DNA from: a virus
Direction: 5' to 3' (one strand)
Length of the DNA stretch: 64,000 nt
Virus record (IMG/VR): IMGVR_UViG_3300030060_003575
Coordinates: 11,142-75,141 of that record
Shown: positions 6,001 through 46,346 of the stretch, in pieces
How positions within the stretch are numbered: the stretch's first letter is position 1
How the letters are laid out: the number at the start of each line of letters is the position of its first letter
Notes under the pieces: model-generated
Databases searched by the model: none
What the model was told of the DNA's origin: nothing
Seen by the model: only the letters and a program-made list of their open reading frames with translations
Position numbers and translations under genes: made by a program

Positions 6001-8284
6001 AGATGACCTTTCACTTAATGCTAATAGTGCAATTAGAATGCAGTTGGCTAATAATGCGGAGGTGCTTCTAACTGATGATAAATTAAGCCTAACACCCGGT
6101 AATGAAGATGTTGCCTCATTTGTATTCAGAAACAGAGTAGACTTAGGTATGTTTGAAAGCGGATACAATCTACAACTTGCTGCACCAGAAAATGTTTATG
6201 TTCAAATAGATAGTAATAACAACAATGCTGGTACTAAAGGTTTCATTGTTAAGAAAGATTCAAACAGCGTTGGTGGTGGTACTGAAATATTCAAAGTTAT
6301 GGAAACAGGTGCAGTTACCATTAATCAAGCATTTACATTACCAACAGCAGATGGTTCAGCAAATCAGATATTAAAGACTGATGGAAGCGGTACAGTATCT
6401 TGGGCGGCTGATGGTTATGATGGTGATATTACTACGTTAGATATTGACGGTGGAACAGACATAGGTGAAGCAATAGCAGACTCAGACTTAATTATTGTAG
6501 ATAACGGAGCCGGAGGAACAAACCGTAAAGCAACGTTTAGCAGAGTTAAGACTTGGATTGGGGGTAATGTTTCAGAAGTGAGAATTAGAGATGCTAGAGC
6601 AGACGGTGATATAACACCAGATGACCACACTGATAGGGCTGCTTCATTCCATTTCACAGATGATATTACTGGTAGCCCTAACTCTTGGGATGGAGTATTA
6701 ACCATGAAAGGATGGGGTGACAGTTATACTGCTTGGCAATTACTATCTTCAAACGCTTCTTCAAACATACAAGTAAATCAACCTCTTTACTTTAGGACAG
6801 GAGAAGACGCCGCTTGGAGTAACTTAAGAAAGGTAATAACAGAAGATAACAATGGCCGTGTTGGTATTGGTAACGGTGGTAATGTTCAAGCCACTAACAC
6901 ACTAGAGATAAATCATTCTGGTGCTGATGGCGATAACGGAATAATGATTTCTAGAGATGTTGAAGAAATATCGCAAAACGATGTTCTTGGTGGTATTGGT
7001 TTTGATTCTCACGATGGTAATGACCCAAGCAGTGTTTTAGAAGCATCTGTTGCTATTGTTGCTAAAGCAAGGGAAGACCACAGTACAGGTGACAAAGGAG
7101 GATTCTTAGAATTCATGTATTCACCAACAAACCAAGATGATGATACAACAAGCAGTGTTGGTATGACATTTATAGATGGTAAGTTAGCCATAAACAATGG
7201 TGGGATTCACCCATTAACTACTCTAACTGTGTATCATAATGGCACCGATTTCAATGATGGAATGTTGATTGTTAGAAACGATGGAACTACTGTTGGTGGT
7301 GAATTACTTGGGGCAATTGGTTTTGATTCTAGAGACGGTAATGCTCCTTCACAGGCAACACAAGCATCTGCTGGTATTGCGGCTTATGCGGCAGAAGACC
7401 ATAGCACAGGTGACAAGGGTGGGGCTTTAGCGTTCTTTACATCACCTCTTGACCAAGATGATGATACTGCCTCTATCGAAAGAATGAGGATAAAGGCTGG
7501 TGGTTCTATCATGTTCCAAGATGATAACCCGAACAAGACAATCAGGGTTCATGCAGATACTAATTCAAGCCCTCAACCAAGAATAGAAATGATGCGAGGT
7601 ACGCATGATACATGGGGTAGTGGTGATAACTACAATGATTGGAGATTTATCAATGAAAACGATTTAGTATTCTATTCTGGTACAAGTAGCATTTCAAGCG
7701 GTGCGGCAGTAGAAAGACTAAAACTATATTCAGATGGAAGTGGATTAGAAATAAACAATGCTTACAAATTACCGGGAGCAGATGGTAGTAATGGACAAGT
7801 TTTAGTTACAAATGGTAGTGGAACATTATCATTCGCTGACCAATCAGGCGGGGGTGGAGGTTTAGATACAAACACCTTTGTTATTACTGGTGAAGAAGGA
7901 GACTTATATGCAGGTACAGGTAGCACAGGCAACGCTAACGGTTATCAATTCTCATACGGTAATGGTAGAGCAAACGTGCAAAATTCAAGCAGTGGAACTG
8001 ACTTTGGTATTAACGTACCTGTGAATTGCACATTAACCAGAGTAGATGTAGTATTTGGAAACAATGGTAATGTGAGTACCGGAACCACTACATTCGTTGT
8101 AGTGAAGAACGGTACAAATCAATCAGGTAACTTAAGCACTAGCCATTCATCAGGTGTGCATGATACTCATCATACAGGATTATCACATTCATTCTCAGCA
8201 GGTGATAGATTCAACTTAAGAACAACAACTTCATCTAAGCAAGTTGGCCCTATGAGAATGACAGCATACTTTACTCCAACATGA
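2..8284 (+). CDS. giant tail fibre / adhesin (5' partial; first in-window ATG at 77)
   Basis: The frame is open from position 2. The product exceeds 2700 aa, is G/T/S/N/D-rich, and has repeated G(N/R/K)VGIGTTxP and DRTITLP motifs plus LPxADGSxxQxLxTxGSG linkers typical of marine phage tail fibres. A chaperone-like gene follows. Confidence 0.8.
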   Translation, partial: LNANLINALNIATSGSFVASGGNITMSAGSSNTIYAISEIKYFRDGKLLTMSALSSNNEPTWNINANFDWFGLIVIADGTETSEGGSDVIKFRGSSTLGETFVDGATPKNGDIPIAAVHISKASTNTATNRKIQFLGMGKLNSEFSAVNNGTETLRINKDGTITKGGQTITLPSTTGNVVTTGDTNTITESMIADNAIGNDQMANNAVNTNEIANDAVTFAKMTNISTNSFIGRNSAGTGNPENLTKTQALTVLNVEDGADVTDTTNVKAALNADLGGSMTIGDANDTVTIAGDLIVTGTTTTESVETVSTSNGVVFEGSVADNHEITLKAGTVTTDRTITLPNATGTIALTSSNITGNAATATQLQTGRTINGVTFNGTSNITVTAAAGTLTGNTLKSSVTASSLTSVGTIGTGTWQGTPIADAYISSASTWNAKLPTIDSHDLESNININNDLLLMHDDSASGTKEHKISIATMLGKITASQLAGSGKVFGTLPESGAEVNQNAFTTIAVSGQSNVIADQKTDTLTLASGGATTITTAAGSDTITVSSTNTTYSAGNGIALSGTTFSVAAGDALTQTSTGLKLADPATLSELTESTDNGSDKILLWDESTSAWKYMSITNLEDSIGTYTAGTGLSVSSNVFTHDSHTGEVTGSTALTIANNVVDEANLKVSNSPTNGYFLSAQSGNTGGLTWAVPANTQLSQEQVEDYVNGLLVAGSNITKTYDDAAGTLTIASTDTNTQLTTEQVQDIVGAMFTSNTETRIAATYEDGDGTIDLVVDDMTADTNTQLSNEQVQDIVGAMFSGNTETNITATYRDTDGTVDLVASSGDVVDDTSPQLGGDLDVQTHEIKTTSGNRDIILRPDGTGAVIVSDEDESFPSSPTPNKGKLTVLHDGGTGPTLLLSDTDGDEHGGPNLNIYRGSASPADDDIIGQITFQGVNDNDELAGYGRVKTSIEDNTDSTESGILALSVLKNGTHSDMLTISGENNLVKVHGNFEVTGTQTVVDTVTMNAANAIVFEGATADAYETTLTITDPTADRTITLPNTSGTVALTSQLAGAGSDTTYSAGTNISLSGTTFNVDDAFLKNDGDDTTTGTITAAGLNLTAANDHPLVIRNTTNSGYAGIQFSDNSNNSYAQSGELRFNHADSSSQGSGASFHFTTTEADLSIVGGKFIASDSVATEPGFGFAGDTDTGMYQSAANTLQFVTAGTNRMQIASGGGVSINNDVSITKTLPSNNATTLSGAQAFVVDCIDDQSSSSGPGFAIRLEATNDHNGPNYTKTIMGDGGGMRVKNIFGNYGFSEWWLGGTADGNKPIMSLAAGGATSAGAAQDGILTLYSTTSAWANNTYSPTNNTAKVVLDAGGDSYFKGGDVGIGTSTINGILHIRDESDGDDQFSGIRFFPADSETSATDNDFYHNITGFRKGGLMLSGGQSGNYTRTYATLNNDGFKVFTNAGDNTAVNMSTQQRMLVPTGGGATTFYTDILIESSATSGEAPVLDLYKNDSGPAVSEAMGSIKFSGENDADQKVTYAEIQSFIEDETDATENAALQFWVQEMGTPRENLRIASNQITFNNTERNVDVLIKSDDGSTNFFSDAGTNRVGIGTTSPASLLDVASASTSVIRLSNTDTALTEDQITGEIIFDQSDSTSGGDGISGRIGMRSATRPDNASYFGNAADMGFFVSGSADGTASNNAALEAMTIRAGGKVGIGTTTPTGKLTITDGGHDMIHLNRTVNNAGYGMGIIGRAGNSASTTAAHEYAAIFLQIEDNTDGAEKGSIAFNTSSGGTAADSGSTHAMQITSAGNVGIGTTSPDAKLRIHQTDGSVHGLKVSRNDSSTSTPLVFLLDDSVYVDSPTLHIRNDRADQYGYSALFEGRVGIGHAGNTVTAPDQQLHVEGSILIDAYNQGTTTVASNYSDGETSLVLTDASTFNEKGTGTINGVKFSWTAINYGTNTLTVPDLNANYASGVTVAADTGLFFREGFETAAQPSVTIYDQANSGASRDDLSLNANSAIRMQLANNAEVLLTDDKLSLTPGNEDVASFVFRNRVDLGMFESGYNLQLAAPENVYVQIDSNNNNAGTKGFIVKKDSNSVGGGTEIFKVMETGAVTINQAFTLPTADGSANQILKTDGSGTVSWAADGYDGDITTLDIDGGTDIGEAIADSDLIIVDNGAGGTNRKATFSRVKTWIGGNVSEVRIRDARADGDITPDDHTDRAASFHFTDDITGSPNSWDGVLTMKGWGDSYTAWQLLSSNASSNIQVNQPLYFRTGEDAAWSNLRKVITEDNNGRVGIGNGGNVQATNTLEINHSGADGDNGIMISRDVEEISQNDVLGGIGFDSHDGNDPSSVLEASVAIVAKAREDHSTGDKGGFLEFMYSPTNQDDDTTSSVGMTFIDGKLAINNGGIHPLTTLTVYHNGTDFNDGMLIVRNDGTTVGGELLGAIGFDSRDGNAPSQATQASAGIAAYAAEDHSTGDKGGALAFFTSPLDQDDDTASIERMRIKAGGSIMFQDDNPNKTIRVHADTNSSPQPRIEMMRGTHDTWGSGDNYNDWRFINENDLVFYSGTSSISSGAAVERLKLYSDGSGLEINNAYKLPGADGSNGQVLVTNGSGTLSFADQSGGGGGLDTNTFVITGEEGDLYAGTGSTGNANGYQFSYGNGRANVQNSSSGTDFGINVPVNCTLTRVDVVFGNNGNVSTGTTTFVVVKNGTNQSGNLSTSHSSGVHDTHHTGLSHSFSAGDRFNLRTTTSSKQVGPMRMTAYFTPT
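2096..2480 (+). repeat. three tandem 41-47 aa repeats inside the tail fibre
   Basis: NTQLxxEQV(Q/E)DxVxxxx...TYxDxxGTxxx units start near 2096, 2219 and 2360. Confidence 0.85.
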
Positions 8285-10121: not shown

Positions 10122-11572
10122 GTCATATCCTCCTTTAATTTTACGTAAACGCTTTTATTTATTCTGTTTTCTTCAAAGTATTCCCCAATAGATTTCTTCC
10201 ACCAATTGTAAATAGTTTGTTGTCCCTTCTGGGTTTTCTTTCTAACCTCTTGAAGTAATAATGTTTTATGCACCCATCCATCGTTACTGTCCATATCACG
10301 ATATATTGCTTTAAACACTCCTAAATTCGCTGTTTGTGCCACTGCTACCTTCTCAACCCGAAGTGCCTCATCTAGCCAAGATACGAGACTCTTATAACAT
10401 TGTCGAACAATCGAGGCCGCTTGTTGCACATTTTTCTGTGTAACAATAAATCTTTTGCTTTTATCCTTTATACTTGGGGCTTCCGCTACTGCACACAATA
10501 CTGCCAGTTTTTGGATATGTTTCAATATCCTGTTAATAAAAGTTTCAACTGCTTGAAACACTTCTGGTCTACTATGGCTAATATATTCCTCCATTAGAAT
10601 ACATTCACGCAATAAAGCATCTCTCGCATCAGGTGCTATCTTTATCACCTTAAGTGGGTCTTGCCCTACTTCATCATAACGTTCCTTTACAGCATCATAA
10701 ATCGTAGCAATACTTTTTGAGTATTTAATCTTCGGTGCTTCTTTTTGCTGCACAGTACCATAATCAGAAATTAACTTTCTTCTCATTTTCTTCTGCACAT
10801 CTTGTGGCACTTCCCATATAAATATCAAGAGTCTTTGCAGAACACCCTTTTCTGTAATAACACTTGTTAGTGTCTTTGGGATATATGATGTACCATAAAC
10901 TGAACGCTTGCATATACATTCTATAGGTTCATCACCCTGCTTCAACTTCTTAGAGATAACGAAAGTTTCTCCCCACATGGTATTCATAAATGTATTCAAA
11001 TACACAATTGCATTTTCTTTGTGTTGTGATTGTTTAAACACACCAGAATACTCAAACTCATCCCAGATTGCCATACCTTCTCCATGTAATTGCCCATAGA
11101 TAGGTACATTAACGTCAATCATTCTTGTCCTGCCATCTTCTTCTTCTACTTCTTCTCTTCTTTGCTCAAAGGAACCAATCAATGCAGCGTCTGTATAGTC
11201 GGTAATGTCAAACACGTCAAGATTAGTCCCGTGCTTTTCATTAATTAACTTAAACGCCTCTTCTATTATTGGTAGATACCAATTTGTTAGGGTTGATTTA
11301 CCAGTTCCTGAGGTTTGCAACCACAATATCTGTAATCGGGTATCATCAACGTTGATACCACTAGGTATTGCTATCATATCTTTAATTACTTGTCCTACCA
11401 TTGCGAAAAATGATAGGGTTGCGGGTGTATAATTATAATTAGATGCTTTAACCGCATCATTAGTATAACTAACCGCTACAGCAGGTAGAGTGATTTCTGT
11501 TTCACTCTCCTGCATTCCATTATCTATGAAATCATAGTACATTTCGTCTTCATCTGTATATCGTCTATTCAT
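10118..11572 (-). CDS. MCM-like AAA+ ATPase (putative replicative helicase)
   Basis: Walker A SGTGKS, Walker B IWDEF, arginine-finger-like LQRLL, sensor-2-like RILKHIQKLA and a C-terminal winged-helix-like segment. Confidence 0.65.
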   Translation of the reverse strand: MNRRYTDEDEMYYDFIDNGMQESETEITLPAVAVSYTNDAVKASNYNYTPATLSFFAMVGQVIKDMIAIPSGINVDDTRLQILWLQTSGTGKSTLTNWYLPIIEEAFKLINEKHGTNLDVFDITDYTDAALIGSFEQRREEVEEEDGRTRMIDVNVPIYGQLHGEGMAIWDEFEYSGVFKQSQHKENAIVYLNTFMNTMWGETFVISKKLKQGDEPIECICKRSVYGTSYIPKTLTSVITEKGVLQRLLIFIWEVPQDVQKKMRRKLISDYGTVQQKEAPKIKYSKSIATIYDAVKERYDEVGQDPLKVIKIAPDARDALLRECILMEEYISHSRPEVFQAVETFINRILKHIQKLAVLCAVAEAPSIKDKSKRFIVTQKNVQQAASIVRQCYKSLVSWLDEALRVEKVAVAQTANLGVFKAIYRDMDSNDGWVHKTLLLQEVRKKTQKGQQTIYNWWKKSIGEYFEENRINKSVYVKLKEDMT

Positions 11573-12258
11573 ATTGTCACCTTGTCTTCACTATTTAATG
11601 TGTCTATTATTCTTTGTGCTAATGTTATTCCTATTCCGTCTATTTTAGTTAATTCATCAACTGTGGCCTCACCTATTTCCATCAAGGAGCCAAAGTCATC
11701 TATTAGTATTTGTGCTTTTGTTGTACTTATTCCTTTTATTGTTGCTAACATGTTTATTCTTAGGTCGTCTGTTGTTATTCTTTTCATCAGTGTTGGGCTT
11801 ATTACATCTCTATTTATTGGTCTCATCTTACATATTGTTGTCATCAGTTTTGCTGCTTTCTTTGGGCCTTCAACCCAGAATACTTTTACATCTGTGTCTA
11901 AGGTTATTTTTCCTATTGCGCCATAAAATTTATTTATTAATAAATGGCTAGGAATGTTAATATTAACGTAGTCTGGATAGGCTAGTGCCTGATGGATAGA
12001 ACCATGTATAACAAGAATACAATGCTCAAAATATCTATCCATATTATCTAATTGATTCCACAATCTCTTGTTAATAACAGATTGTAGAAAGTCAATAGTA
12101 GATTTTGCTTCAAAGCAAACATCACTAAATACATAGTCACCAACCTCAATCCATTGTTTTTCAGTCATAATGTTTAATGCTATACATTCTCTTTTGACTG
12201 CATTAGATAAATCAGAATTTTCCCTACTATCTATAATTAACTTATTCATTCTAACCAC
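11569..12258 (-). CDS. ERCC4/XPF-family structure-specific nuclease with HhH
   Basis: IIDSRE, GDY, EAKSxxDFLQS, and two C-terminal HhH motifs (IKGIS, IDGIG). Confidence 0.85.
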   Translation of the reverse strand: MVRMNKLIIDSRENSDLSNAVKRECIALNIMTEKQWIEVGDYVFSDVCFEAKSTIDFLQSVINKRLWNQLDNMDRYFEHCILVIHGSIHQALAYPDYVNINIPSHLLINKFYGAIGKITLDTDVKVFWVEGPKKAAKLMTTICKMRPINRDVISPTLMKRITTDDLRINMLATIKGISTTKAQILIDDFGSLMEIGEATVDELTKIDGIGITLAQRIIDTLNSEDKVTI

Positions 12259-13387: not shown

Positions 13388-13691
13388 CCTTAAAATTTAC
13401 ATTTGCTGTTTGTAGTTCTTCTTTTATTATATCTGCTATTTTATTATTTAATTGCCTTAATACTTCTCCTTGGAAAAACTCACCAAAAAGCATGTCCTCA
13501 TATATTGGAACATCCCATATTAGGTCTACCTTAGACTTAACATCTAAGTCATCATACATCTCACTAGACATAGTAGTTATTATTTCTGCTACGTTACTAA
13601 TCTCTTGAAATGTCCATGTCTTTTCTTTTAACTTACTTCTTACCTTTTCGCCTATTCTCATAACCATGCACCTTCTTCTGCCGCAGGGCAT
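13290..13691 (-). CDS. hypothetical protein (start probably near 13662)
   Basis: ORF coupled between the primase and nuclease genes. Confidence 0.55.
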   Translation of the reverse strand: MPCGRRRCMVMRIGEKVRSKLKEKTWTFQEISNVAEIITTMSSEMYDDLDVKSKVDLIWDVPIYEDMLFGEFFQGEVLRQLNNKIADIIKEELQTANVNFKDDDKDEVPKRSVGRKPPKKRTTNEKSDSKKQD

Positions 13692-14539
13692 ATACTCATA
13701 AAACTACAATATTGGCATGTATTGTAATAATACTTAGGGTTGAACTCCTGTAACTCATATGCCTTTATTAATTGTGTAATGTTCTTATACACCGCAGTTA
13801 TACTTTGTTTCTTAACTGCTTCTACCTGTAGATAATTAGATTGTGGATAATACCAAGCCCAATTTGTAACGGGTATATTAGGGTCTAATCCATTATCTAA
13901 CAACACTTGCTCTGGAGTATTCTCTATCAATATCTTGTAAAAGGCTAATTCTTTACGCATCATAGTTAATTTATAATCTTTCCAAGGGCCAGTCTTTAAT
14001 TCCATAGGTATATACTTACCATCCTGAACAAACATCCTATCAATTATACCTTGTAAATGCACAACATAATCCCTTTCTAAGACACACTTAGGATTATACG
14101 CATGTGGTATTGTGATTTCTGCATCTAGCATAATCTCATTGATAACTGGTAAATACTCATCTACAGTATCATCCTCTTTAGCCTGTAGGAATCGTTCTGC
14201 TTCAAATATTGATATAGTCTTATACATCTCAGTGTAATCATCTATCGGATGCAGACCCATGTTATAAGTCACTAACTCATCATAACTTAAATTCTCTGCC
14301 TTCTTAACATCAAAGTCATTGAAGAAATCCTCTCTACTATTGTGTACCGCAGTACCTTTAATCATAGCCTCCGTTGTTGATTGAGGTAACCTCAATGGAT
14401 ACGAAAACTCATACTTCTTAGGACACCAGTTAAAGGTTCCAAAAGAAGACTTTGTTATTTTTAATATTGGGTTCTCCGGGTTACTATATTCTGCCGGATA
14501 CCATTTATATGTATATTCTCTCATTTTACCACCACTCAT
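13658..14539 (-). CDS. Cas4-like PD-(D/E)xK exonuclease
   Basis: WCP...GIIDR...ELKTG...CxxCxxxxxC four-cysteine Fe-S arrangement. Confidence 0.8.
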   Translation of the reverse strand: MSGGKMREYTYKWYPAEYSNPENPILKITKSSFGTFNWCPKKYEFSYPLRLPQSTTEAMIKGTAVHNSREDFFNDFDVKKAENLSYDELVTYNMGLHPIDDYTEMYKTISIFEAERFLQAKEDDTVDEYLPVINEIMLDAEITIPHAYNPKCVLERDYVVHLQGIIDRMFVQDGKYIPMELKTGPWKDYKLTMMRKELAFYKILIENTPEQVLLDNGLDPNIPVTNWAWYYPQSNYLQVEAVKKQSITAVYKNITQLIKAYELQEFNPKYYYNTCQYCSFMSICPAAEEGAWL

Positions 14540-15443
14540 TTAAATTTGTTTGATTTATATCTTGACTAATTGGTTTAGTGTCCCAACCCATTGCCATGTA
14601 AATAGGTTCTGCCTTTTTAATAACAGATAATGCATAATGCCTCCAATCAGGCTGGAAGTTACAATGCTTATTTAAGTCTACTAAACTAGAAGCCGCAAGA
14701 TATGTAGGCCTCTTAGATACCCCTGTAATTGGATTAACGTAAGTAGGTCTAGATGGGTCATCTGATACTCTCACATAAACATAAGAATCTTCTATGGGAA
14801 CACCATAGACTTGATTCCACCATATAACACCTTCAATACCGCCACCAATACTAGGGTCTTTACCCATCATGGTTCTCAACAATAAGTCTTTACCACACTT
14901 ACTACAAAAAGCATTTTGAGTAAACTCTTTCCTTATCTTTAATACGTCATCTATGTCATATTCTTTAGAACAAAAGTTACACTTGTAACGAACACGTTCT
15001 GGTTTGAACCTACTTCTGTTCGTAATATTCTTTATATCAATCTCACCATTCAGAACCTTGTTATATTCTGTCTTGAGATAGTTAGTTATTTCCTGTTCTG
15101 ATTTCTTTTCAACCCACATTTTTAAAACTGTCAATTGAATATCTTTTGCTAATTGAGTTATTGCCACTCTCTTTGCAGCAAAACCAGTCATAACAAATTC
15201 AGGCTCATCTAATGTAACACCGTCCTTCCAAGAAATAAGCCCCGCGTTTCTATTCTTAGTTATACCAACGCCTAAAGACTCATAATATTTCTCAAACTCT
15301 AATGTTACAGGGTGTTCTTTTAATCCTAAAAGATTAGGAAACAGTCCTCTTACATGGTTATTCAATAAAGCCAATGTTTCTTCTGCTCGATTCATTGGCA
15401 TTTCTACATAGATAGAATCAGTATGTCCATAAACCACTTTCAT
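14526..15443 (-). CDS. polB: family B DNA polymerase, C-terminal part (split gene)
   Basis: Begins MKVVYGHTDS (motif C variant), then LEFEK, KNRNAG, a CxxC...CxxC insertion and a C-terminal PIP-like QTNLNEWW. Confidence 0.9.
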   Translation of the reverse strand: MKVVYGHTDSIYVEMPMNRAEETLALLNNHVRGLFPNLLGLKEHPVTLEFEKYYESLGVGITKNRNAGLISWKDGVTLDEPEFVMTGFAAKRVAITQLAKDIQLTVLKMWVEKKSEQEITNYLKTEYNKVLNGEIDIKNITNRSRFKPERVRYKCNFCSKEYDIDDVLKIRKEFTQNAFCSKCGKDLLLRTMMGKDPSIGGGIEGVIWWNQVYGVPIEDSYVYVRVSDDPSRPTYVNPITGVSKRPTYLAASSLVDLNKHCNFQPDWRHYALSVIKKAEPIYMAMGWDTKPISQDINQTNLNEWW

Positions 15444-16238
15444 TCTACTCTCTCCCAATGTTTTTCATACTTAGTATTAAATCTAAACATCCCGCCTATG
15501 TCATCTAGGTATTCAATTACATATACTGGTAGATACCAATCATGTTCTACATTTACTACCATTGCTTTTTTGCTGGTTAGTCTATTTACTATTATATCAT
15601 TTATTCTAAAAATTGTCATTTATATATTCCCCTTCTTTCTAGCATACAAATATTTTGCTGCTTCATTGATGCATCTAGGACACAGGTTGCCATACATTGT
15701 TGATTGTAAAGCAATTACTATACCATCGGTGTCATCTTTACCATCATAGGTCTCACAATAAAAACACGGTTTCATTATTCTTCCTCCCATAAACTTTCAT
15801 CCCAAGGGTTTACCATGACGATGTAATCATTGACAAAAACATTGATACAAGGAATACAAATACTACCCCCGTCTACCTCAACATATTGTCTTATACCAAA
15901 TATTGTTCTATTGGTATGATTACACACAACACAAGTTTCTATTTGGTGTTGCGATTTATCGCCTGCAAACCATATGGTCATTCTTCTTCTCTCACCTCAA
16001 CGAATAACCAAGCACCAGTTTGCATACATTTACATCTCACATTTTCACTTCCTGTTTACAATAAGTACACAGGCCTTCATCATCAACACTACGATGATGC
16101 TTATTATATTGACAATTACAATAATACTTTCTCATTTTAATATCTCCTTACTTTCTCATCTTGTAATGACCTTAATAATGCATGAACAAATACAACATAA
16201 AAGGCTACTATAGGTATCGTACATAAAAGTTCCGTCAT
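15440..16238 (-). other. six coupled micro-ORFs between the polB halves
   Basis: Manual translation: 16238-16137 (33 aa, hydrophobic), one from 16135 (32 aa, Cys/His), a 20-aa ORF, 15981-15775 (68 aa, two CxxC), 15775-15620 (51 aa, two CxxC) and 15619-15440 (59 aa). Starts and stops overlap or abut. Confidence 0.6.
15775..15981 (-). CDS. small zinc-finger protein
   Basis: CVVC...ICIPC. Confidence 0.6.
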   Translation of the reverse strand: MTIWFAGDKSQHQIETCVVCNHTNRTIFGIRQYVEVDGGSICIPCINVFVNDYIVMVNPWDESLWEEE

Positions 16239-17887
16239 ATTTCCATCACCTTAAACGCTGCTGCTCTAATTGCCTCTCTAGCACTAGCAGTAATACTAGC
16301 AGCCAAATCAACATCAGCCCAGCCAAACCCTTGATAAGCAACGATACCGTAAAAAGAGGCCATTAATCTTTTTACAGCAAGTTGATTGTTGCTCCACTTA
16401 ACATAGTTATCTGGGTCAGTCTTCATCTTCTTTTTATATTCATCTCGCAATTCCTTTAACTCTAAAACTGCTTTAGGTAAAAGCCCAAGTTTATCTGTTT
16501 TATAATAAAGCATTTGCTCATCATCCTCTATCGAGAAATCTCTAGGTGTTAGAATGTTAACACCAAACTCAGTAGGTTCATCTGATTTGGTTTCCCATGA
16601 TATATTCCGGGCTATCATCATAGAGGGATACAGTTGTGCAAAATCAAACGCAGCCACACCTAGATGTAAACCGTTTGTCCCTTCTGTTTCGGGGTTGTAA
16701 ATCATAGCCCCTTGATAATCAACCTTATCACCATGTTCACCAGTAGGTGCCTTCCAAGTAGCATTACGCATAAAGTATATACCACCCATGTTACTAGCAT
16801 AAAAGCAAGCATCGAATGGTGCCTTTAGTAAACGCTGTAATGCAATAACTGCTTCCGATGTGTAGTTCTCTTCATCTATCCTAACAAGAAGCATAACGTC
16901 AACTGCTGCATAATCAAGATAGTGCTTGGTATCTTCCAACCATCCTCTAGAAAAGAATTCATTCTTATCTGGAAACTTTTCCGATACAAGTTTCTTCTCA
17001 CCTAATACAATATCAGCAACGTAATCTAATGCTAATGATGGTAGTGTTCCTCTTTGAGCATCATTCCATTGTCTCTCAAAAGCCAAGTCTAGATTTAATA
17101 CTAGCCTTCCTCTGATTGGTTGTTCAATAGGGCTATAATTGTTCACGTTCTTGGAAAGTTTGATACCTTCATCAAAATAAACCCCCTTCACATCATTATA
17201 TGGAGATAATTTTCTGGGGTCTAGCCCGTTGGCATAGAGTCTTTCGATTAATTTAGGCAAATCGAACTTAGACCCGAACCAAGAAATCATCATATCTGGG
17301 TCTTCTCTAGTCAAGTGACCCACAAAATTCTCTAACATTTCTTTTTCAGTTAGAAACCCTTCACCAATAAGATTTCTTTTCGGTGGTGTATCTCTAGGCA
17401 ACCAATAAGAAACTCTATTTCTTTTAGTGTAGTTATCATAGAAAACCATACAAGTGATAGCACCATCGTGTTCACCCCCCTGCTGCCATTCTAAATCCCA
17501 ATACCACTTTCTGAGATTATACTCAGGCATCTCAGATATGTGGTCTATTGCATATCTATAATGATAAGCAACGTCTGCTTCATAGGTTTGCTTCCACTCC
17601 TTTCTGAGTGTTCGCATATATCCGGGCTTCGGTGGAAACCATGTTACCTTCTTTAACGGTTCACCATCTAGATTAACAGCGTCACCGCTACTGTCATACA
17701 CCAAATCAATACCAATGCTTTTACCAAAATCCCGAAAAGAAACCCGGTGTATTTCTCTTTCACTTTGTTTAATATAAAAATAAGGTGGTGCTTCATTATA
17801 CTCAACTTCCCTTTCTTGTCTATTATTATTCTGGTCTCTCCATCTTAGACCTATCATATTATTTTTATCTACTGTACTAATTATCAT
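16235..17887 (-). CDS. polB: family B DNA polymerase, N-terminal part (exonuclease plus motifs A and B)
   Basis: WDLEW, FGSKFD and YAAVD exonuclease motifs; DFAQLYPS (motif A); KRLMASFYG (motif B). Confidence 0.92.
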   Translation of the reverse strand: MIISTVDKNNMIGLRWRDQNNNRQEREVEYNEAPPYFYIKQSEREIHRVSFRDFGKSIGIDLVYDSSGDAVNLDGEPLKKVTWFPPKPGYMRTLRKEWKQTYEADVAYHYRYAIDHISEMPEYNLRKWYWDLEWQQGGEHDGAITCMVFYDNYTKRNRVSYWLPRDTPPKRNLIGEGFLTEKEMLENFVGHLTREDPDMMISWFGSKFDLPKLIERLYANGLDPRKLSPYNDVKGVYFDEGIKLSKNVNNYSPIEQPIRGRLVLNLDLAFERQWNDAQRGTLPSLALDYVADIVLGEKKLVSEKFPDKNEFFSRGWLEDTKHYLDYAAVDVMLLVRIDEENYTSEAVIALQRLLKAPFDACFYASNMGGIYFMRNATWKAPTGEHGDKVDYQGAMIYNPETEGTNGLHLGVAAFDFAQLYPSMMIARNISWETKSDEPTEFGVNILTPRDFSIEDDEQMLYYKTDKLGLLPKAVLELKELRDEYKKKMKTDPDNYVKWSNNQLAVKRLMASFYGIVAYQGFGWADVDLAASITASAREAIRAAAFKVMEI

Positions 17888-29249: not shown

Positions 29250-29874
29250 TTATTATTATTTTATCTGCTACTTTTTCTTCATTAAACCAACGTTGAATCC
29301 ATTGCGCCCCATATCCAGCAATCGCAACGTGAGTAAAATGTAACACTTCCTTCTTTCCCGATTCGTTAAAGTTTTCACCTTGACAGGAAAAGGAACCTTC
29401 TGGCCCCGTAAGAAATGTTTCACTAAACTTAGGGTCTGTTAAATAACTGATAAGTGCTCCATTGCGACCCTGCGCCCTCAGGTCTAACCACTTAGTTTTA
29501 CAATCATCTTGAAACCCTTCTGCATAGAGAAGTTTCCGTACTGCTAGATTATCTGCACAACATACAACTAAATCATATCCTTCTATTTGTTTTCTGGTTA
29601 CGATTGGAAATTGAATCCCAAGTCGGATACCAACATCATTGTAATGATTCATACATGTTGTTTCTCTTTTCATAGCGGAAACCTTCATCATATCCAGAGA
29701 CCCTACTGCATAGTTTTGATAACTTAGGTTCTTTTCTTCTACAGTATCTGGGTCTGCTATCGTTATTTCATATAGTTCTGTCTTGTGTAAAAGCGGTGCT
29801 AGAAAACTTCCAATACCGCCTACACCAATTATTAATATTTTTCTTGTCATTTTAATTACCTTATCCCTGCACAA
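29242..29874 (-). CDS. ThiF/MoeB/E1-like adenylating enzyme
   Basis: IIGVGGIGS, DxDTVEEKNLxxQ, K, VVCCADNLAVR and a later Cys (FSC). Confidence 0.9.
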   Translation of the reverse strand: MCRDKVIKMTRKILIIGVGGIGSFLAPLLHKTELYEITIADPDTVEEKNLSYQNYAVGSLDMMKVSAMKRETTCMNHYNDVGIRLGIQFPIVTRKQIEGYDLVVCCADNLAVRKLLYAEGFQDDCKTKWLDLRAQGRNGALISYLTDPKFSETFLTGPEGSFSCQGENFNESGKKEVLHFTHVAIAGYGAQWIQRWFNEEKVADKIIINV

Positions 29875-30788
29875 AATCCTTCTACATCCAACGTTGATAG
29901 TTTATCCTTATCTATATTGAACATAGGATATAGTTTCTTAGTTGTCAATCTTTGTGCTACTGCTGTGCATTTGCAAGCATCACAAATTGCCTGTTGAGTA
30001 TGTTCAACCTTACCAATCTTTCTAAGCATAGAGGCTATCCAAACAGCAGAAGCCATATGACTCCTTGTAAAATGAATATCTCTCAACGTTAGATAATCAT
30101 GGATATAATTTACAACCGTCTTTGTTTCCGATGTAAACTCAATCGAGGCATCTAAGTCAGAACATATTCTATCAACCCAAGGATTAATAGGCATGTTTTG
30201 CAGTATGTTAGACTTGCCTAAATGTCTAGCAAAATGTCTAGCATACTTAGATACCTTATGTGCATCTTCATTGTTTTGTTCTGCTATTTCAGATATTGTT
30301 ATAGGAACCCCATTTTCTCTCAAACAAATAACAACAATCGCACATGCTCGTAATGGCAATGTCACTCCCCTTAACTTATGGTCTAGATACAAAGAACGAT
30401 AGTAACTGTGTACTCTGTCCTTTAACCCATGATTTGGTAGGAATGGTGACATAACCATATTACATTCTAACAATCCCTTTTGAATAGAGGTTTCATGTGA
30501 ACTACTTCTAAATCTCTTATTAGTCCTTCTAAGTTGTCTACTCAAACGACTGTTATCATCATTACCAATTAGTGACCCTAATTCTCCGGGTCTATCTATT
30601 TCATTCTTATAGGTAAAATTACCTGCTTTCAATTGTTCATAGTCAATGGTTCGGTTTGTCTTATCCTCAAAGATATTACGAACCTGCACATAACCACAAT
30701 CATCACAGACTGTTTCACCCATTCTATCATCATAACTAAAATTATTTCCATCACATTCTTCACATTTCATGAAATCACCGTGTCCCAA
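29856..30788 (-). CDS. tfb: transcription initiation factor IIB (TFB) homologue
   Basis: Zn ribbon CEEC...GETVCDDCGYV and two cyclin-like repeats (PITISEIA; TQQAI). Confidence 0.85.
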   Translation of the reverse strand: MGHGDFMKCEECDGNNFSYDDRMGETVCDDCGYVQVRNIFEDKTNRTIDYEQLKAGNFTYKNEIDRPGELGSLIGNDDNSRLSRQLRRTNKRFRSSSHETSIQKGLLECNMVMSPFLPNHGLKDRVHSYYRSLYLDHKLRGVTLPLRACAIVVICLRENGVPITISEIAEQNNEDAHKVSKYARHFARHLGKSNILQNMPINPWVDRICSDLDASIEFTSETKTVVNYIHDYLTLRDIHFTRSHMASAVWIASMLRKIGKVEHTQQAICDACKCTAVAQRLTTKKLYPMFNIDKDKLSTLDVEGFCAGIR

Positions 30789-39714: not shown

Positions 39715-40296
39715 TTATTCACGCATATTAACTAGCAAAAGAACCAAGTATCCTATTAGGTCTTTTACTACGTCTTCATCAGATTCTAATGATGCATTAC
39801 CTTGCATCAACCTGTTCAATTTATCATCTATGCGAACTTTCAACTGTTCTGTCTTATCAGCCCTAGAAAATATTCTTATTGGCTGTAAAGCGGAATCACC
39901 ATATTGGTCATTCTTATCAAGGAGAAACTGTGTTATTTCTCCCATTGTCTTTGAAATCTTAAAACTGGATTCGTCTTGGCCCTTCACAGGCTTGGCCTGC
40001 TCTTTCGCCTTATTATACTTACCCGCTATCAGATTAGGTTGCATATGTGTTCCCCATTGAGAGGAACCCATTATCTTTTTAAGATAAGGTTCATTTATTA
40101 TCTTCTCTTTAGATTGACTCTTTGGTTTTCTACCACCATTTCTTTTACTGATTGTTCCTTGAGCCTGTAGTCTGTAAATGCGTTGTCTTACAGAACCGAC
40201 TGTTCTATTCATTTTCTTGGCTATTGCTATCGCAGTTAGCCCTTGCTTCCACAGTTTCATTAACTGTGTTTCTTCTTTCTTTGTCCATTTCGTCAT
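39715..40296 (-). CDS. HTH protein fused to a DUF1599/nucleotide-modification-associated domain
   Basis: N-terminal KWTKKEE...IAKKMNRTVGSV; C-terminal KNDQYGDS...RIDDKLNR...DVVKDLIGY. Confidence 0.7.
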   Translation of the reverse strand: MTKWTKKEETQLMKLWKQGLTAIAIAKKMNRTVGSVRQRIYRLQAQGTISKRNGGRKPKSQSKEKIINEPYLKKIMGSSQWGTHMQPNLIAGKYNKAKEQAKPVKGQDESSFKISKTMGEITQFLLDKNDQYGDSALQPIRIFSRADKTEQLKVRIDDKLNRLMQGNASLESDEDVVKDLIGYLVLLLVNMRE

Positions 40297-40700: not shown

Positions 40701-41025
40701 TACATATCGAATCAATGGCGCGATTTAACATCATAACATTTTACGCCATAAATTCTGATTAGTATATACTGGCCTTTGGTGGAATACGTGCTTGTAAGGC
40801 CATTGATTGTAATTGCCACCAACAATTCTATAGATGGCAGGGGATATATAAGTCGGCGGCACCCCTCGATGCCCCTCGTCTATAAATATCCTATTTGTCG
40901 AACCATATGGTATCAACAACTTTGTCCAGTTGAAACCTGATTTTGAGGAGTCCGACAGGAAAGGGCGACTTTATCCCTTTCCTGCCAGACAAGAATTGCT
41001 GCTAACTAGGCGTGAAAGAAGGGTT

Positions 41026-41535
41026 TTATTCCTCTTCCTCCACAAAGTCGTATTCTGCACAAGCGGCAAGTCCATCTAGTGAACCATCCCATGAGCCGTC
41101 CTTGTAAAGTTCCCTTGCCGTCTGCTTTGCTTTCTTAGCGAGGGTGTTTGCGTAATCATTAGCATCTGTGAACACAGGTGGCCCTGCGCTCTTTCCGTGC
41201 TTTCTGAGCAATGGCTGAGAATACTGCGCTGTGCTCTCAAAGAACGTATATGCAGCCTCTCGGATTGCTTCAGCAGCAGAATCAACCACTACTGATGCAG
41301 CAGCAGGTAGTAATCCTTGATTACCTCTGCGCCATACAACCTTTCCTGAAGGGAAGTCCTTCAGCATTGCTTTAATGGATAGAGCCAAAGCAGCCCTATT
41401 ATCCACATTGTTGTCACCAGTCTCTATTAGCATAGTTGCTAGAGACCTTACATCATCGGGGATTGTTCCATCAACGTCACCCTCGATGCATGAGTTTACC
41501 TTCATCTTTACCGATTCCCAATTTACTTCATCCAT
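41026..41535 (-). CDS. cassette-borne hypothetical protein, paralogue of 43265-43798
   Basis: Likely start MDEVNW downstream of a TATA box; shares HGKSxG...YA...WDGS with the second cassette gene. Confidence 0.75.
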   Translation of the reverse strand: MDEVNWESVKMKVNSCIEGDVDGTIPDDVRSLATMLIETGDNNVDNRAALALSIKAMLKDFPSGKVVWRRGNQGLLPAAASVVVDSAAEAIREAAYTFFESTAQYSQPLLRKHGKSAGPPVFTDANDYANTLAKKAKQTARELYKDGSWDGSLDGLAACAEYDFVEEEE

Positions 41536-41595
41536 AATATTCACTTTCCTATTTTTTCTTTCTTTGCCCGTTAGCGGCATAGTTGTCAATTCTCT

Positions 41596-41614
41596 GGGAT
41601 ATATAAGAGGTTTC
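41596..41614 (-). promoter_or_regulatory. archaeal BRE/TATA promoter of cassette A
   Basis: Minus strand reads GAAACCTCTTATATATCCC; the same CTTATATATCCC 12-mer recurs at 40841-40852. Confidence 0.6.
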
Positions 41615-43264
41615 AAACAAAGCGAAACCATATGGTAATGAGAGTTTTTTCAGGATACAAAGAAACATGCATAGAAAAACGCGCGAATTTTCCTTAGTCT
41701 AAATTCTTAGTGTGTTTTCTGCACCTCAGTTTCCACTGGTTTTGTTATTTAACATCACTTCTTTTACGCCCATTACATGACCATATGGATAGTTAGTACG
41801 TAGTTACGAGAGGGTCTATGAGAGTCGAGGACTCGTTTAGACTGCTATAAAGTCGAATAGACGTAAACTGCGTTAAGCAGTAGTAGACGGTAGCATAGGG
41901 TGAAGTAAAAGAAGGATTGCGGGTGACTGGTCTACGTACTCAGTTTCCCGATACATGAGGATATTTTACATGCTTACGCATAATTAACACCATATGATAG
42001 CAGTGTAACGTTAGTTAAACGTAATGAATAATGGTGTTTAATGAAACACCAATGAAATGTAGTAACGATACGTGTAACGAGGTATCTGATTGCTTCTACG
42101 AAGACGCTACGCTACAATCATATGGTGTTGATAAAACATAGGTGGCACTGAAAAGGTACCGCTTGTTTACAATATCCTTATGATTTGCTCCGCTTTTTAC
42201 TATAGCCTATGCTACGTGCTTAATGCACTGTCGCAAAAAGAGTTCCCAAATCATATGGTTGGTTAAGGTTTCCTCTGGTTACCAGTGTGAGGTGCGGAAC
42301 TAAGGTGCATTACGCACCAACGAAGGTGGTTTGTTCCGGCACGAACATGGTAAGCGGAGGTGCCAATTATACAACCTCAATGGGATTGGTCTATTCATCT
42401 CATTTAACCAACCATATGGTTATAATTCCTCTGGTATACGATTAAAGATGATTAGACACATTAAGTGTCCATCAGGATACCAGAGGAATATATACCCTAA
42501 TAAAAAAAATAGGGTCTTGCGTCATAAGGCCTATATCCCTTAGCCTGTAACTTGACAGCACACCTCGTCCGGTACTACTGTGCGAGAGAAAATATGAATT
42601 CTTCATAATCCCTACATAAATGTAAACGGACGCTAAATGCGTCTTATCGTTTTATATACATTTATTCTCGCCCGTTGTACCACGACGATTGTGCTGCAAT
42701 TTACAGCCTAACGCCTATAAAACCTTATCTCATACCATATGGTCGTAGACCTTAAGGGAACGTTAAAGGAATCTAACTCCGCGCACTTGTACGCATTGTC
42801 TCATGCACCTTTGTTGGTGCTAAATGCACCTTTTCGACAATGGCACGAAGTCCACTTCCGTTATATCCTTTAACTTCTTCGACCCATATGATACTAATGA
42901 AATGGTGTTTGTAAAAAAAGTCGCGGTAACTTGTTAGCGTGACTACTCTACGTTAGTGCGTTAAGCACTAATCTAGATGTAGTAGCATAGGGTTTTTTAC
43001 AAACAAGTATCTGATAGTCCAAGTATTCCTATCATATGGGTTTAGGTTCCAAAGATATACAAGAGGTGAAGATAAAAGAAAAATGCATTAAGCATGAGCC
43101 GTAGGCGGTTCTTTTATTATTGGCGGAAGCCATGCTTCACCTATTGTATAGCACGGAACAACTACCCTCAATTGGGGTCATGTTCTCTAAAGTGAGAACA
43201 TGTTACCATATGGTCATAACTTTGTGAAAAAGACCAGAAGAGGTTGGTGGCGACTAAAACCAAC

Positions 43265-43798
43265 CTATTCTTCTGAACCCCCATTATCGGTGACGGCTGG
43301 ATAGCCATCATCGGTGTACGACCCGTCCCAGTAGTATCTCTTATCGGTACCATTGGTAAACGCATTGAAAGCGGCATTCAAGAATAGCCTCTCTTTCTTG
43401 GTCATATCATCTGCGTATGCAGATGCACCATCATCCATAGTGGAGTAAAGAACCCCACCGGACTTTCCGTGTGTCTTCGCAGTACCAGCCACTAGAGGGT
43501 ACACGACTGTTGCCATGTTATCCCTGAAGGTTGCTAGGTACTTGTCGAAATCGGACTTAACGGCAGTTGTCATTAGAGACTTTCTACCGCCACCAATAGG
43601 TGAATTGTCCAAATCAGCGAATACTACGCTGATGCTCGACCAGTGCCTCTTCCTGAGGTCAGGCTGTGCATCGCCTATTGCGAAGAGACCATCTACAATG
43701 ACCCTTCTTCCCTCATGCTCTGGGTTCGCGTCAAACCACTCATTGACGTGTTCTTTCTTGTTGTTCCATACGCTGTCTTCCATGCTGTAATCAACCAT
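43265..43798 (-). CDS. cassette-borne hypothetical protein, paralogue of 41026-41535
   Basis: GGAGTGA RBS; THGKSGG...AYADDM...YWDGS. Confidence 0.75.
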   Translation of the reverse strand: MVDYSMEDSVWNNKKEHVNEWFDANPEHEGRRVIVDGLFAIGDAQPDLRKRHWSSISVVFADLDNSPIGGGRKSLMTTAVKSDFDKYLATFRDNMATVVYPLVAGTAKTHGKSGGVLYSTMDDGASAYADDMTKKERLFLNAAFNAFTNGTDKRYYWDGSYTDDGYPAVTDNGGSEE

Positions 43799-43854
43799 AT
43801 CTATCACTCCTGTGAATTAGGTGGTTTAGTCGCCACCATAGCACTATTTTCAAT

Positions 43855-43868
43855 GGTATATTTAAGGT
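43855..43868 (-). promoter_or_regulatory. TATA-like promoter of cassette B
   Basis: Minus strand reads ACCTTAAATATACC; equivalent boxes sit at the same position in cassette C (ACCTTAAGTAAA, near 44480) and cassette D (ACCTTATAAATT, near 45005). Confidence 0.55.
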
Positions 43869-44099
43869 ACAGTTTAAACAAAGTAACGTACCATATGGGT
43901 GCAGGTTTAAGAATGCGTAGCATTCTCATTTAGTTGCTCGGCAACGATAAACGAGCAACAAATGGCAAACCAAAGCCCCGTGGGAATGTTTGAGGCACGT
44001 AGTAAGATGCTGCTGGTGTCCTTAGACTTGGCTTAATGCCAACGAGTCCAGCAGCACCTGTTATCTACTTCCATATGGTCATACTTTGTTAAACAGACC

Positions 44100-44465
44100 A
44101 TAATCGCTCAACAATGATGCAACGATTTAAACTTGCGCTAACATCAATTTTACAAGTCGTTGTCTTACTCACTATTGAGATGCATCGTTTTTTGGTAACT
44201 GCCAGAAACGTGCAAAACTGGCTCAAGGATGGATGAGTGGATTCGTTTCCTTACCCTCAAGGTTACATGGGTGTTAGTTCATGCCATTAATTTTGCATGG
44301 GCTTTAACCCGTACCTACCAATAACCGACCCGCTAAGGTCATTGTAGTGCCTGTCTTTTTCTTCGACCGACTCCCTGTGCCGCTAAGCACCGATTATTGT
44401 GCCTTTCACCCTAACAACGGTGATATTCAGCCAATCCGGGTCACTCCGTCAAGTGACATAGCAAT
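44100..44465 (-). ncRNA. putative structured ncRNA occupying cassette C
   Basis: Same promoter and end architecture as the gene cassettes, but no ORF of 60 aa or more; multiple hairpins, two with an identical CGCTAA loop on + (TTAGCG on -). Confidence 0.45.
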
Positions 44466-44678
44466 AATATTGATGGTTTACTTAAGGTAATGTTTAACAA
44501 AGTTACATTACCATATGGGTTGGCATTAAGCCAATGTTTAGACATTCCCTCATTTATCTGGCTGCGAGTACCGCTAGGCTTACATTAACCTCTGAAGGAG
44601 GTCTAAACAACCTCTTATCTTCCGAGGTTAATTGATACTCTCATCCATATGGTATTGAACTTTGTCAACAATACCTGA

Positions 44679-44879
44679 CTAACTGGAATCATCTCCAGTT
44701 AAGCCAAGATAATCATTCAATGCTAGATTCAAATCATCCATGACTTGACCCAAATCATCACCTGATACACGTAGTTTACTGATTGAAAGCACCAGTGAAG
44801 AACCAGATTTCATATGCTTGACTTCAAGCACATATTTGGGTTCGTTGATTTGTTGAACGATTGTTTTTTCTTCTGTCAT
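44679..44879 (-). CDS. cassette-borne small hypothetical protein
   Basis: GGTGA RBS, 66 aa, inside cassette D. Confidence 0.65.
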   Translation of the reverse strand: MTEEKTIVQQINEPKYVLEVKHMKSGSSLVLSISKLRVSGDDLGQVMDDLNLALNDYLGLTGDDSS

Positions 44880-46346
44880 AATATCACCAAAGGTGGAGGG
44901 GCCATTGAACCAAGTGACTACTTACAGGCATTGAATGCTCGGCGGCAATATACTGTATTATCCAGTGTTGGTTGGCCCCTCTATATCAATAGGTATTATG
45001 TAATTTATAAGGTAATGTTTACAAAGCCCATTACCATATGGTTTAGTAAGTGACGGTCTTACTTGCCAGGGAAGGTACGTATACGCGCTTCAGGAACGTA
45101 AGTCGTTTAAACGCATTAAGCGTTAGACAAGTGAACGCGCGTAAACGTCCTGGAACTGGCAAGTAAGAGCAGGAACGCACGTTAAAACCCCGTTAAACCT
45201 GAAGGGCATAAGGAACCTCCTTTAAGGCACTCTTGCTTAACGTAACTTAGACAAGACATATCTTCCGTTAAACGCTTTTGCTGGTACTTAATGTACCTAC
45301 CACTCCATATCTGTCTTGTCTAACTTACGTTAAGCAAGGTAAACCTTAAATCCAACTCCATATGATACGAGGTAGGATTCATCTGGGCTTTAGGCCCAAA
45401 CTAAGGTGGTATGAATCCTTTGAAGTATCTTATGAGGATAGGATAAGCAAGCGGTATATCCACAAGGGAGAAACCTATGCAATATTCCCACCATATGTTC
45501 ACATAAGTGGGCGAACTCAATGGGGATTTATGGGCAATTACCTCCATCTTCGTTCATGTCTTATATCAAGACATTGTGTGTATTATCATATGCCCATTAC
45601 CATATGGTTCCAGCATCGCTGGAAGATAACTTGCAATGGAAGCATACAGCAATGAAAGACGCATTAAGCGTCCACTTAGGTGTAGCAGGCTGTATGCATC
45701 CTAAATGCAAGTTATTCACAGCCCCATTTGAGGATATACATCCATATGGTTATTAATCACTTTCTACAAGAATGTCCTCCAAGGGCTTGTAAAATGTCCT
45801 AGAGACGCATTAAGCGTCTAACAAAGGTGAAGGGACATTTTAAGGGGATTCGCCGTAGAAAGTTACAACGCAGTGTTAATCACCTCAGGTTGCTTAACGC
45901 TTCGCTACAACCATATGCTTTGCATTCGATTTTTTTTCTTATTAAACATTCGTTTGTTTACCCGATTTTGGCATAAGATTTTGTTCTACCTAAGAACACT
46001 TTGATATAGAAGCATCTTAGATGCGCGTATAGAGAAGGCTCAGGTGTGCTAAACATATTTTAATTAATTAAAAATAGATTCGCGGTGCTTCAAGGATACA
46101 AAGAAACAAGTATGCTCTAAACACTGCTATTCAACCATTGATACACTGTGATTAAATAACAAACAAAGGCTTATTCTGGAAATGCACAAGTTTTATATAG
46201 AAAAAAAACGCAAGTGCCGGATAAATTACAGGTCAAATTTTGAAAAATAAAGGTCTAAAAAATTCCGCCAAAAAAATGGGGTAAATAGAGAATGAAAAAA
46301 CTACCATTAAAGAAGGTAAAATTAACAAAGTTTAGGTGGTGGGACT

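Follow-up and report, generated by a model that had tools for sequence, protein, structure and literature searches.

A 64,000-nucleotide stretch of viral DNA (positions 11,142 to 75,141 of IMG/VR record IMGVR_UViG_3300030060_003575; hereafter, the window) contains an array of small modules joined at CCATATGG-type palindromic junctions, in which a short hairpin recurs, with the pentaloop RTTAA closed by a C-G pair (C-RTTAA-G) on a stem of about 5 bp. We found that this hairpin is a genuine, selected and strand-specific structural element, and that something probably reads its fixed loop. Our tentative proposal, which we hold with somewhat less than even confidence, is that it serves as a module-end signal, recognized on single-stranded or extruded DNA and tied to recombination at CCATATGG. 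The window is part of a 75-kb viral record with a magrovirus-type gene set, that of an ocean virus of archaea. Magroviruses count as some of the most abundant viruses in surface ocean waters (PMC5434244).

Enrichment of the hairpin was assessed in four related contigs, namely the window's own record, L001, L003 and L005. Inside their arrays (23.9 kb), C-RTTAA-G occurred 74 times, 54 of them with a stem of at least 4 bp (most commonly 5 bp), compared to 21 occurrences outside the arrays (101.8 kb), a single one of which had such a stem. This corresponds to a hairpin density about 230-fold higher inside the arrays than outside. The motif is thus far from being equally frequent elsewhere in these genomes, and the hairpin is kept in the relatives of the window.

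A first-pass annotation, made from the sequence of the window alone, had described differing, paired stems around a fixed loop and proposed that this loop is recognized in a sequence-specific manner. Both points are in good agreement with the covariation that we observed. Among 69 distinct hairpins, the closing C-G pair was invariant, the second pair was G-C in 54, A-U in 11 and U-A in 4, and stem pairs 3 to 5 each showed at least four pair types; the fifth pair, which lies outside the selection criteria, was formed in 54 of the 69. Overall, 73.9% of the stem cells were paired (53.5% in shuffles) and 154 cells carried double changes (73 in shuffles), and pairing dropped from 74% to 27 to 41% when the partner column was slid. 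Pairing was almost wholly Watson-Crick, G-U accounting for about 1.5% of pairs at the inner stem positions. An alignment of 70 hairpins showed conserved columns only in C-RTTAA-G. Furthermore, when orthologous modules of different genomes were grouped by their flanks alone, the stem changes comprised 10 compensatory doubles, 1 wobble and 4 disruptive changes, and the loop was unchanged. Only one reading accommodates a loop that never changes on Watson-Crick stems that covary freely, namely that of a structure-dependent element with a sequence-specific loop; the compensatory changes between orthologous modules and the existence of a lineage-specific loop (see below) add further weight to it.

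The hairpin is also strictly oriented within its module. Read on the RTTAA strand, 69 of 70 non-redundant modules have the loop closer to the 5' CATATG junction; in the remaining one it lies midway, and none has it closer to the 3' junction. All 14 copies of the window obey this rule. Modules of 240 to 385 nt tend to hold a pair of hairpins, one at each end and both facing inward, which is the same end placement as that of terminal inverted repeats. In 7 of 67 tabulated modules, the hairpin lies directly against CCATATGG. The RTTAA loop is restricted to the window's own magrovirus subclade. In a sister subclade (L031 and L043) it is replaced by a loop of the C-ACTTA-G type, on similar stems and with the same polarity in 10 of 10 cases; the other lineages have no dominant loop. 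The CCATATGG arrays of the magrovirus-like contigs L008, L013, L015, L018, L123, L129 and L135 have no RTTAA hairpin and show other recurrent loop motifs, such as ATTCAATGAACAAT and C-rich CCCACCCTCA stretches.

At the opposite end of the module, A/T runs of at least 6 nt were enriched 20 to 35 nt inside the 3' junction (88, compared to 27 at the 5' end; RTTAA strand, ORF-less modules, that is, those without an open reading frame, of the window, L001, L003, L005 and metagenome loci). This AT-rich box could be a promoter, directed either inward or toward the junction. We found no 3'-end motif common to all modules, only subfamily motifs. Two further candidates were rejected: a C-TTAA-G tetraloop as a general second hairpin, which was not enriched, and the rule that the hairpin invariably tops a symmetric fold-back, which was dropped with a median z of only -3.4 for mirrored domains and criteria that were too strict in tracing an unbranched fold-back between junction and loop.

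In the window, 11 copies and 3 loop variants lie between 41867 and 45819 (Table 1). The seven copies on the plus strand and the two reversed ones listed in the first-pass annotation were found by pattern search where it had placed them, and its three loop variants were recovered by a covariance model based on 70 non-redundant hairpins. Two canonical copies that the annotation had overlooked (at 42455 and 45283) were added when the second pair was allowed to be A-T. At E<0.05, 14 of the 15 window matches of the model, the three loop variants included, fell within 41859-45826. The simpler string GCRTTAAGC had 11 matches in the window, compared to 0.61 expected from shuffles, 10 of them in 41870-45900 and 1 at 158; the match at 45892 has a stem of just 2 bp and is not this hairpin. 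The only GCATTAAGC hairpin outside the array (147-177, 4-bp stem) lies inside an ORF of 2735 aa and is probably there by chance.

The array consists of 4 cargo modules and 16 ORF-less modules, the latter 95 to 330 nt long and folding as irregular long hairpins. The modules, which the first-pass annotation took to be diverged homologues and which may be so, are alike in architecture and have no detectable common sequence beyond loop and junction. The initial description of roughly one hairpin per module applies to 12 of the 16 ORF-less modules, 2 of which are double modules with two inward-facing hairpins each; it does not apply to the other 4 or to any of the 4 cargo modules. Similarly, the sequence GTAGCATAGG, which had been noted as following the hairpin, does sit 7 to 20 nt 3' of three hairpins in the window. 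It was not found in the arrays of relatives and is therefore the mark of a local subfamily of modules rather than of the hairpin family. The likeness between GCAUUAAGC and a conserved stretch of 16S rRNA is probably coincidental, since the stems vary.

Comparison of related genomes indicated that the modules move as units. The flanks of L005 and L007 are 92 to 95% identical and colinear, whereas their arrays consist of matching blocks, mostly 80 to 95% identical, that are repeatedly permuted and inverted; the block ends that we compared with CATATG positions fall at junctions. Likewise, the window and L001 have flanks that are about 80% identical and share their cargo modules, which are inverted and changed in order; most of the ORF-less modules have no detectable counterpart. 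Because modules are permuted and inverted both in L001 and between L005 and L007, with the checked ends at CATATG, past inversion at the palindromic joints, which the first-pass annotation had suggested from the mixed orientation of the modules, is well supported. In another marine sample, a DNA contig agrees with the window over 41780-42410 and has 101 unrelated bases left of junction 41781, which represent a different neighbouring module in another population. Two runs contain this contig and look like one data set filed twice, so that they were counted once. L006 ends inside the array, and L010 and L014 likewise end inside it or at its edge; this suggests that assemblies break there, as expected with several arrangements per population. 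The joints share just 8 to 10 bp each (ACCATATGGT), less than ordinary homologous recombination needs.

The cargo modules carry a different hairpin. Its loop is of the ACTTTGTNAAAC type, its stem covaries, and it is placed directly inside CCATATGG, facing inward at both ends, with a TATA-like box following it at the promoter end. Two cargo modules encode paralogues of 201 and 180 aa with about 25% identity, conserved HGKS-G, YA and WDG motifs and an acidic C-terminal tail. This family travels as modules in the arrays of many magrovirus lineages, in about 60 clusters, all unnamed and with no Pfam domain; an AlphaFold model of the paralogue (pLDDT 86.9) is helical with a terminal beta-hairpin. 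A third cargo module contains a structured RNA that gives a full-length match to the Rfam manA model (RF01745), scoring 39 to 54 bits compared to a gathering score of 55.2, and that is kept in all four arrays (window 44226-44456 on the minus strand, L001 6349-6582, L003 9507-9734, L005 4124-4347). An Rfam scan of the four arrays (E up to 1 for the window and up to 0.01 for the relatives) returned this manA-like RNA and tRNA only, leaving the ORF-less modules unmatched. In two metatranscriptome studies, RNA contigs covered three cargo modules at a depth of 40 to 260, deepest at the manA-like RNA (263), and none lay on ORF-less modules.

Table 1. Hairpins, modules and junctions of the array (window coordinates)
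Feature	Position	Strand	Remarks	Basis
Module array, about 20 modules at 21 CCATATGG-type palindromic junctions	40903-45918		Between leftward and rightward gene blocks	
Junction starts	40903, 41628, 41781, 41990, 42118, 42251, 42412, 42735, 42884, 43032, 43206, 43891, 44071, 44511, 44645, 45034, 45358, 45491, 45600, 45742, 45911			
Hairpin, 5-bp stem, loop GTTAA	41867-41881	+	Followed by GTAGCATAGG at 41890	Pattern search and covariance model
Hairpin, 4-bp stem, loop ATTAA	42216-42228	-	GTAGCATAGG (minus strand) at 42206-42215	Pattern search and covariance model
Variant hairpin, loop ATTAC	42304-42318	+		Covariance model, 17.7 bits
Hairpin, 5-bp stem, loop ATTAA	42455-42469	+	Second pair A-T	Pattern and covariance model
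Variant hairpin, loop ATTTA	42629-42643	-	Second inward-facing hairpin of double module 42413-42741	Covariance model, 17.3 bits
Variant hairpin, loop ATTTA	42816-42830	-		Covariance model, 19.3 bits
Hairpin, 8-bp stem, loop GTTAA	42952-42972	+	Followed by GTAGCATAGG at 42982; stem fully compensated in L001 orthologue	
Hairpin, 4-bp stem, loop ATTAA	43083-43095	+		Pattern and covariance model
Hairpin, 5-bp stem, loop ATTAA	44028-44042	-		Pattern and covariance model
Hairpin, 6-bp stem, loop ATTAA	44519-44535	+	Directly abuts junction 44511-44518	
Hairpin, 5-bp stem, loop ATTAA	45110-45124	+	Left hairpin of double module 45035-45364	
Hairpin, 5-bp stem, loop ATTAA	45283-45297	-	Right inward-facing hairpin of double module 45035-45364	27.9 bits
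Hairpin, 5-bp stem, loop ATTAA	45658-45672	+	Close to apex of fold-back module 45601-45748	Covariance model
Hairpin, 6-bp stem, loop ATTAA	45803-45819	+		Covariance model
Cargo module, 201-aa orphan protein (41026-41631, -)	40903-41635	-	No RTTAA hairpin	
Cargo module, 180-aa paralogue (43265-43807, -)	43206-43898	-	Inward ACTTTGTNAAAC-type-loop hairpins at both ends, then TATA-like box; no RTTAA hairpin	
Cargo module, manA-like structured RNA (44226-44456)	44071-44518	-	No RTTAA hairpin	
Cargo module, 66-aa ORF (44679-44879)	44645-45041	-	No RTTAA hairpin	
Cargo-end hairpin sites	43206-43240, 43865-43898, 44071-44105, 44480-44518, 44645-44680, 45008-45041, 41600-41635			

Taking these observations together, we propose the following, tentative as it is. 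In a palindrome-jointed cassette array, the hairpin would label the 5', junction-proximal side of ORF-less modules. When a module becomes single-stranded or extruded, be it by replication, resection or cruciform formation, its fold-back would present the fixed loop to a lineage-specific protein, and the hairpin and the adjacent CCATATGG core would together define the module end for breakage and rejoining, so that whole modules are inverted and permuted. The cargo modules would have their counterpart of this signal in the ACTTTGTNAAAC-loop hairpins that abut the junction at either end. We infer all three parts of this scheme, namely that a protein reads the loop, that it does so on DNA rather than RNA, and that the hairpin takes part in recombination. 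A reading on DNA is suggested by the rarity of G-U pairs, the similar folding of both strands, the inward-facing placement at module ends and the lack of RNA contigs on the ORF-less modules. Indeed, the two strands of whole modules had mean folding energies of -45.2 and -44.0 kcal/mol and 6.7% and 6.0% G-U pairs, compared to 13.8% in shuffled sequences, and no strand asymmetry in G-U content or folding energy was found.

Several observations weigh against this proposal. A 5-bp hairpin would not extrude from duplex DNA unaided, and the variable spacing between junction and loop, 13 to 127 nt, sits uneasily with a protein of fixed geometry. The cargo modules rearrange without an RTTAA hairpin, which means that this hairpin is not strictly required. 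No member of Phage_integrase (PF00589), Resolvase or Y1_Tnp (PF01797) was found by six-frame searches of six viral records (the window's record and five related ones, three of which are 92 to 100% complete according to CheckV), and Pfam and PHROG scans of most ORFs of at least 150 aa detected no recombinase. The fold of the cargo paralogue was uninformative, its structure search returning only generic matches (Z of at most 6.1, Foldseek E >2). The missing RNA contigs are only a weak hint, as contigs cannot show absence, least of all for small structured RNAs. Finally, the strict polarity and the AT-rich box near the opposite junction fit a transcription unit equally well.

This last point leads to the alternative that the element acts in RNA, a close rival that we hold with slightly lower confidence. 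Each ORF-less module would then be a short non-coding transcription unit or regulatory cassette, and its RUUAA pentaloop would bind a viral RNA-binding protein. The hairpin would be located near the 5' end of an RNA starting at or near the junction or, if transcription runs inward from the AT box, it would be a 3'-end hairpin with a UUAAY loop. The strict module polarity speaks in favour of this, as do the restriction of the loop information to one strand and the A/T box near the 3' junction, which in some modules (e.g., L036) is directed toward that junction and looks, on visual inspection, like the cargo promoter TTATAAATTAC. Moreover, the cargo modules of the same array are transcribed, one of them as a structured manA-like RNA, and known RNA-peptide sites such as boxB have the same format, with a pentaloop on a 5-bp stem. 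On the other hand, the ORF-less modules have no RNA contig beside cargo modules that are well covered, which counts weakly, and they match no Rfam family. G-U pairs are rare, and sense and antisense are symmetrical. Since modules are oriented about 50:50 in the arrays, both strands would need to be transcribed, and where the hairpin abuts the junction there is no space upstream for an internal promoter; directional TATA pattern scans at module ends matched too rarely to settle an orientation. We also considered whether peptides are encoded from the junction ATG and rejected this (median of 9 codons, compared to 6 in control frames): the junction ATGs open no ORFs, and the ORF-less modules are therefore not peptide genes.

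An origin region, in which the hairpins would be single-strand initiation or loading signals for a primase-helicase or another replication protein, appears improbable to us. The array does lie where a leftward replication block switches to a rightward block, at the minimum of the cumulative GC skew, the virus encodes a split PolB, RFC, a ligase and a DUF3987-type helicase, and the hairpins would be exposed on single-stranded DNA. However, the GC skew and the switch in gene orientation fall together, so that the skew provides no independent evidence, origins are not expected to permute and invert between near-identical genomes, the hairpin orientation has no left-right pattern around any centre, and the array occurs without the RTTAA hairpin in other magrovirus lineages. 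Least probable of all is a functionless relic hitch-hiking from a founder module spread by duplication, its stems kept paired by arm-to-arm correction of the DNA: equal folding of the strands, rare G-U pairs and module subfamilies would fit, but the loop is invariant in 69 distinct copies, between which no similarity of stems and flanks is detectable any longer, it differs coherently in the sister lineage, the polarity is never violated, and arm correction leaves an asymmetric conserved loop unexplained.

The proposed module-end signal can be extended to a broader, more doubtful hypothesis, according to which the hairpins and the CCATATGG core would act in cis as the signals of a DNA rearrangement system of archaeal viruses that is as yet undescribed, with cutting and rejoining at the palindromic core under the guidance of the module-end hairpins, loops co-evolving with a lineage-specific protein, and an enzyme of no known recombinase or transposase family. 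In any case, a hairpin with a conserved loop in a hypervariable, rapidly reshuffled array offers a handle, through defined oligonucleotides and a small set of viral proteins, for the search for a new nucleic-acid-recognizing protein and for the way in which cassette regions are rearranged in archaeal viruses without a known recombinase. If the hairpin acts in RNA, it would define a new family of viral non-coding RNAs.

Regarding the setting of the array, the window encodes a family-B DNA polymerase split into two ORFs (14526-15458 and 16235-17887, minus strand) about 780 bp apart, RFC, an ATP-dependent ligase, an ERCC4-HhH nuclease (11569-12258), a PD-(D/E)XK nuclease (13658-14539), a TFB-like protein (29856-30788), an RNR-like protein, tRNA-Leu and a DUF3987-type helicase. 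No RNA polymerase domain was detected, and the 2735-aa ORF (77-8284, plus strand) matched no Pfam or PHROG family. A 193-aa protein (39715-40296, minus strand) with an N-terminal helix-turn-helix (HTH_28) and weak transposase-like PHROG matches adjoins the array and is syntenic in relatives; it is a candidate DNA-binding partner. The position of the array is fixed in many magrovirus contigs, the CCATATGG modules lying beside RNR-like, AAA_13-like and HTH genes. With at most one mismatch, CCATATGG has 44 sites in the window, compared to 24 expected, and 21 of the 44 are inside the array. A search for a three-junction CCATATGG pattern in 185,579 species genomes returned unrelated tandem repeats only, with no arrays and no Poseidoniales record, and a literature search for the CCATATGG octamer returned only primer sequences. 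In the magrovirus literature searched, there was no mention of the array, the hairpin family, its polarity or the lineage-specific loop.

Among known systems, the PeSL (promoter-early stem-loop) cassettes in the hyperplastic regions of T4-type phages come close to the array as a whole, in that a repeated signal bounds small accessory units (PMC2839356, Arbiol et al. 2010). Both are plastic regions where units are gained, lost and shuffled at the signal from one related virus to the next, and such shuffling is what we observed between the window and L001 and between L005 and L007; our cargo modules, moreover, combine a hairpin with a promoter-like box. The PeSL signal consists of a promoter and a terminator stem-loop and is long enough for homologous exchange. 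The present array differs by its palindromic joint sharing 8 to 10 bp, its free inversion, its mostly ORF-less pentaloop fold-backs and its archaeal host.

The attC sites of integrons are recombination-associated sites recognized as folded hairpins, variable in stem sequence and kept in structure, and they too occur in cassette arrays. The modules studied here likewise form an array, and their covarying stems are compatible with a site on a folded strand. However, no IntI or other tyrosine recombinase (PF00589) was found in the six records, there are neither RYYYAAC/GTTRRRY cores nor extrahelical bases, and the conserved part is the loop. Furthermore, integron cassettes have one orientation and an external promoter, unlike our modules, in which orientation is mixed and the cargo has its own TATA-like boxes and is covered in RNA libraries. 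REP/BIME elements, which are read as single-stranded DNA by RAYT proteins (Y1 HUH), share with our hairpins the small size, the occurrence in both orientations, the variable stems and a conserved short motif. The likeness to REP/HUH systems drawn in the first-pass annotation does not extend to membership, however: the hairpins have no conserved GTAG head, the six records have no Y1 transposase, the host virus is archaeal and, in contrast to the dispersed REP elements, the hairpins are confined to one array, with 54 in arrays and 1 outside over 125 kb. The other comparison made there, with phage N4 promoters, found no positive evidence. Those promoters are DNA hairpins of 5 to 7 bp with a small conserved loop, read by a protein after extrusion and used by a single-subunit virion RNA polymerase, while the loop here has 5 nt instead of 3, 11 to 19 copies occur per array, these do not precede ORFs, and no polymerase of that single-subunit type was detected.

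In the shufflon of R64 (Rci/sfx), segments between short repeats are inverted into many isomers. Here, rearrangement was seen between genomes, the core is a perfect palindrome, no single gene end is remodelled, and the six records have no Rci-type recombinase. Overall, membership in the REP/RAYT, integron or shufflon systems fails, and by analogy the hairpin appears somewhat like attC and REP in being read by its structure, within an array that resembles PeSL cassettes or a shufflon.

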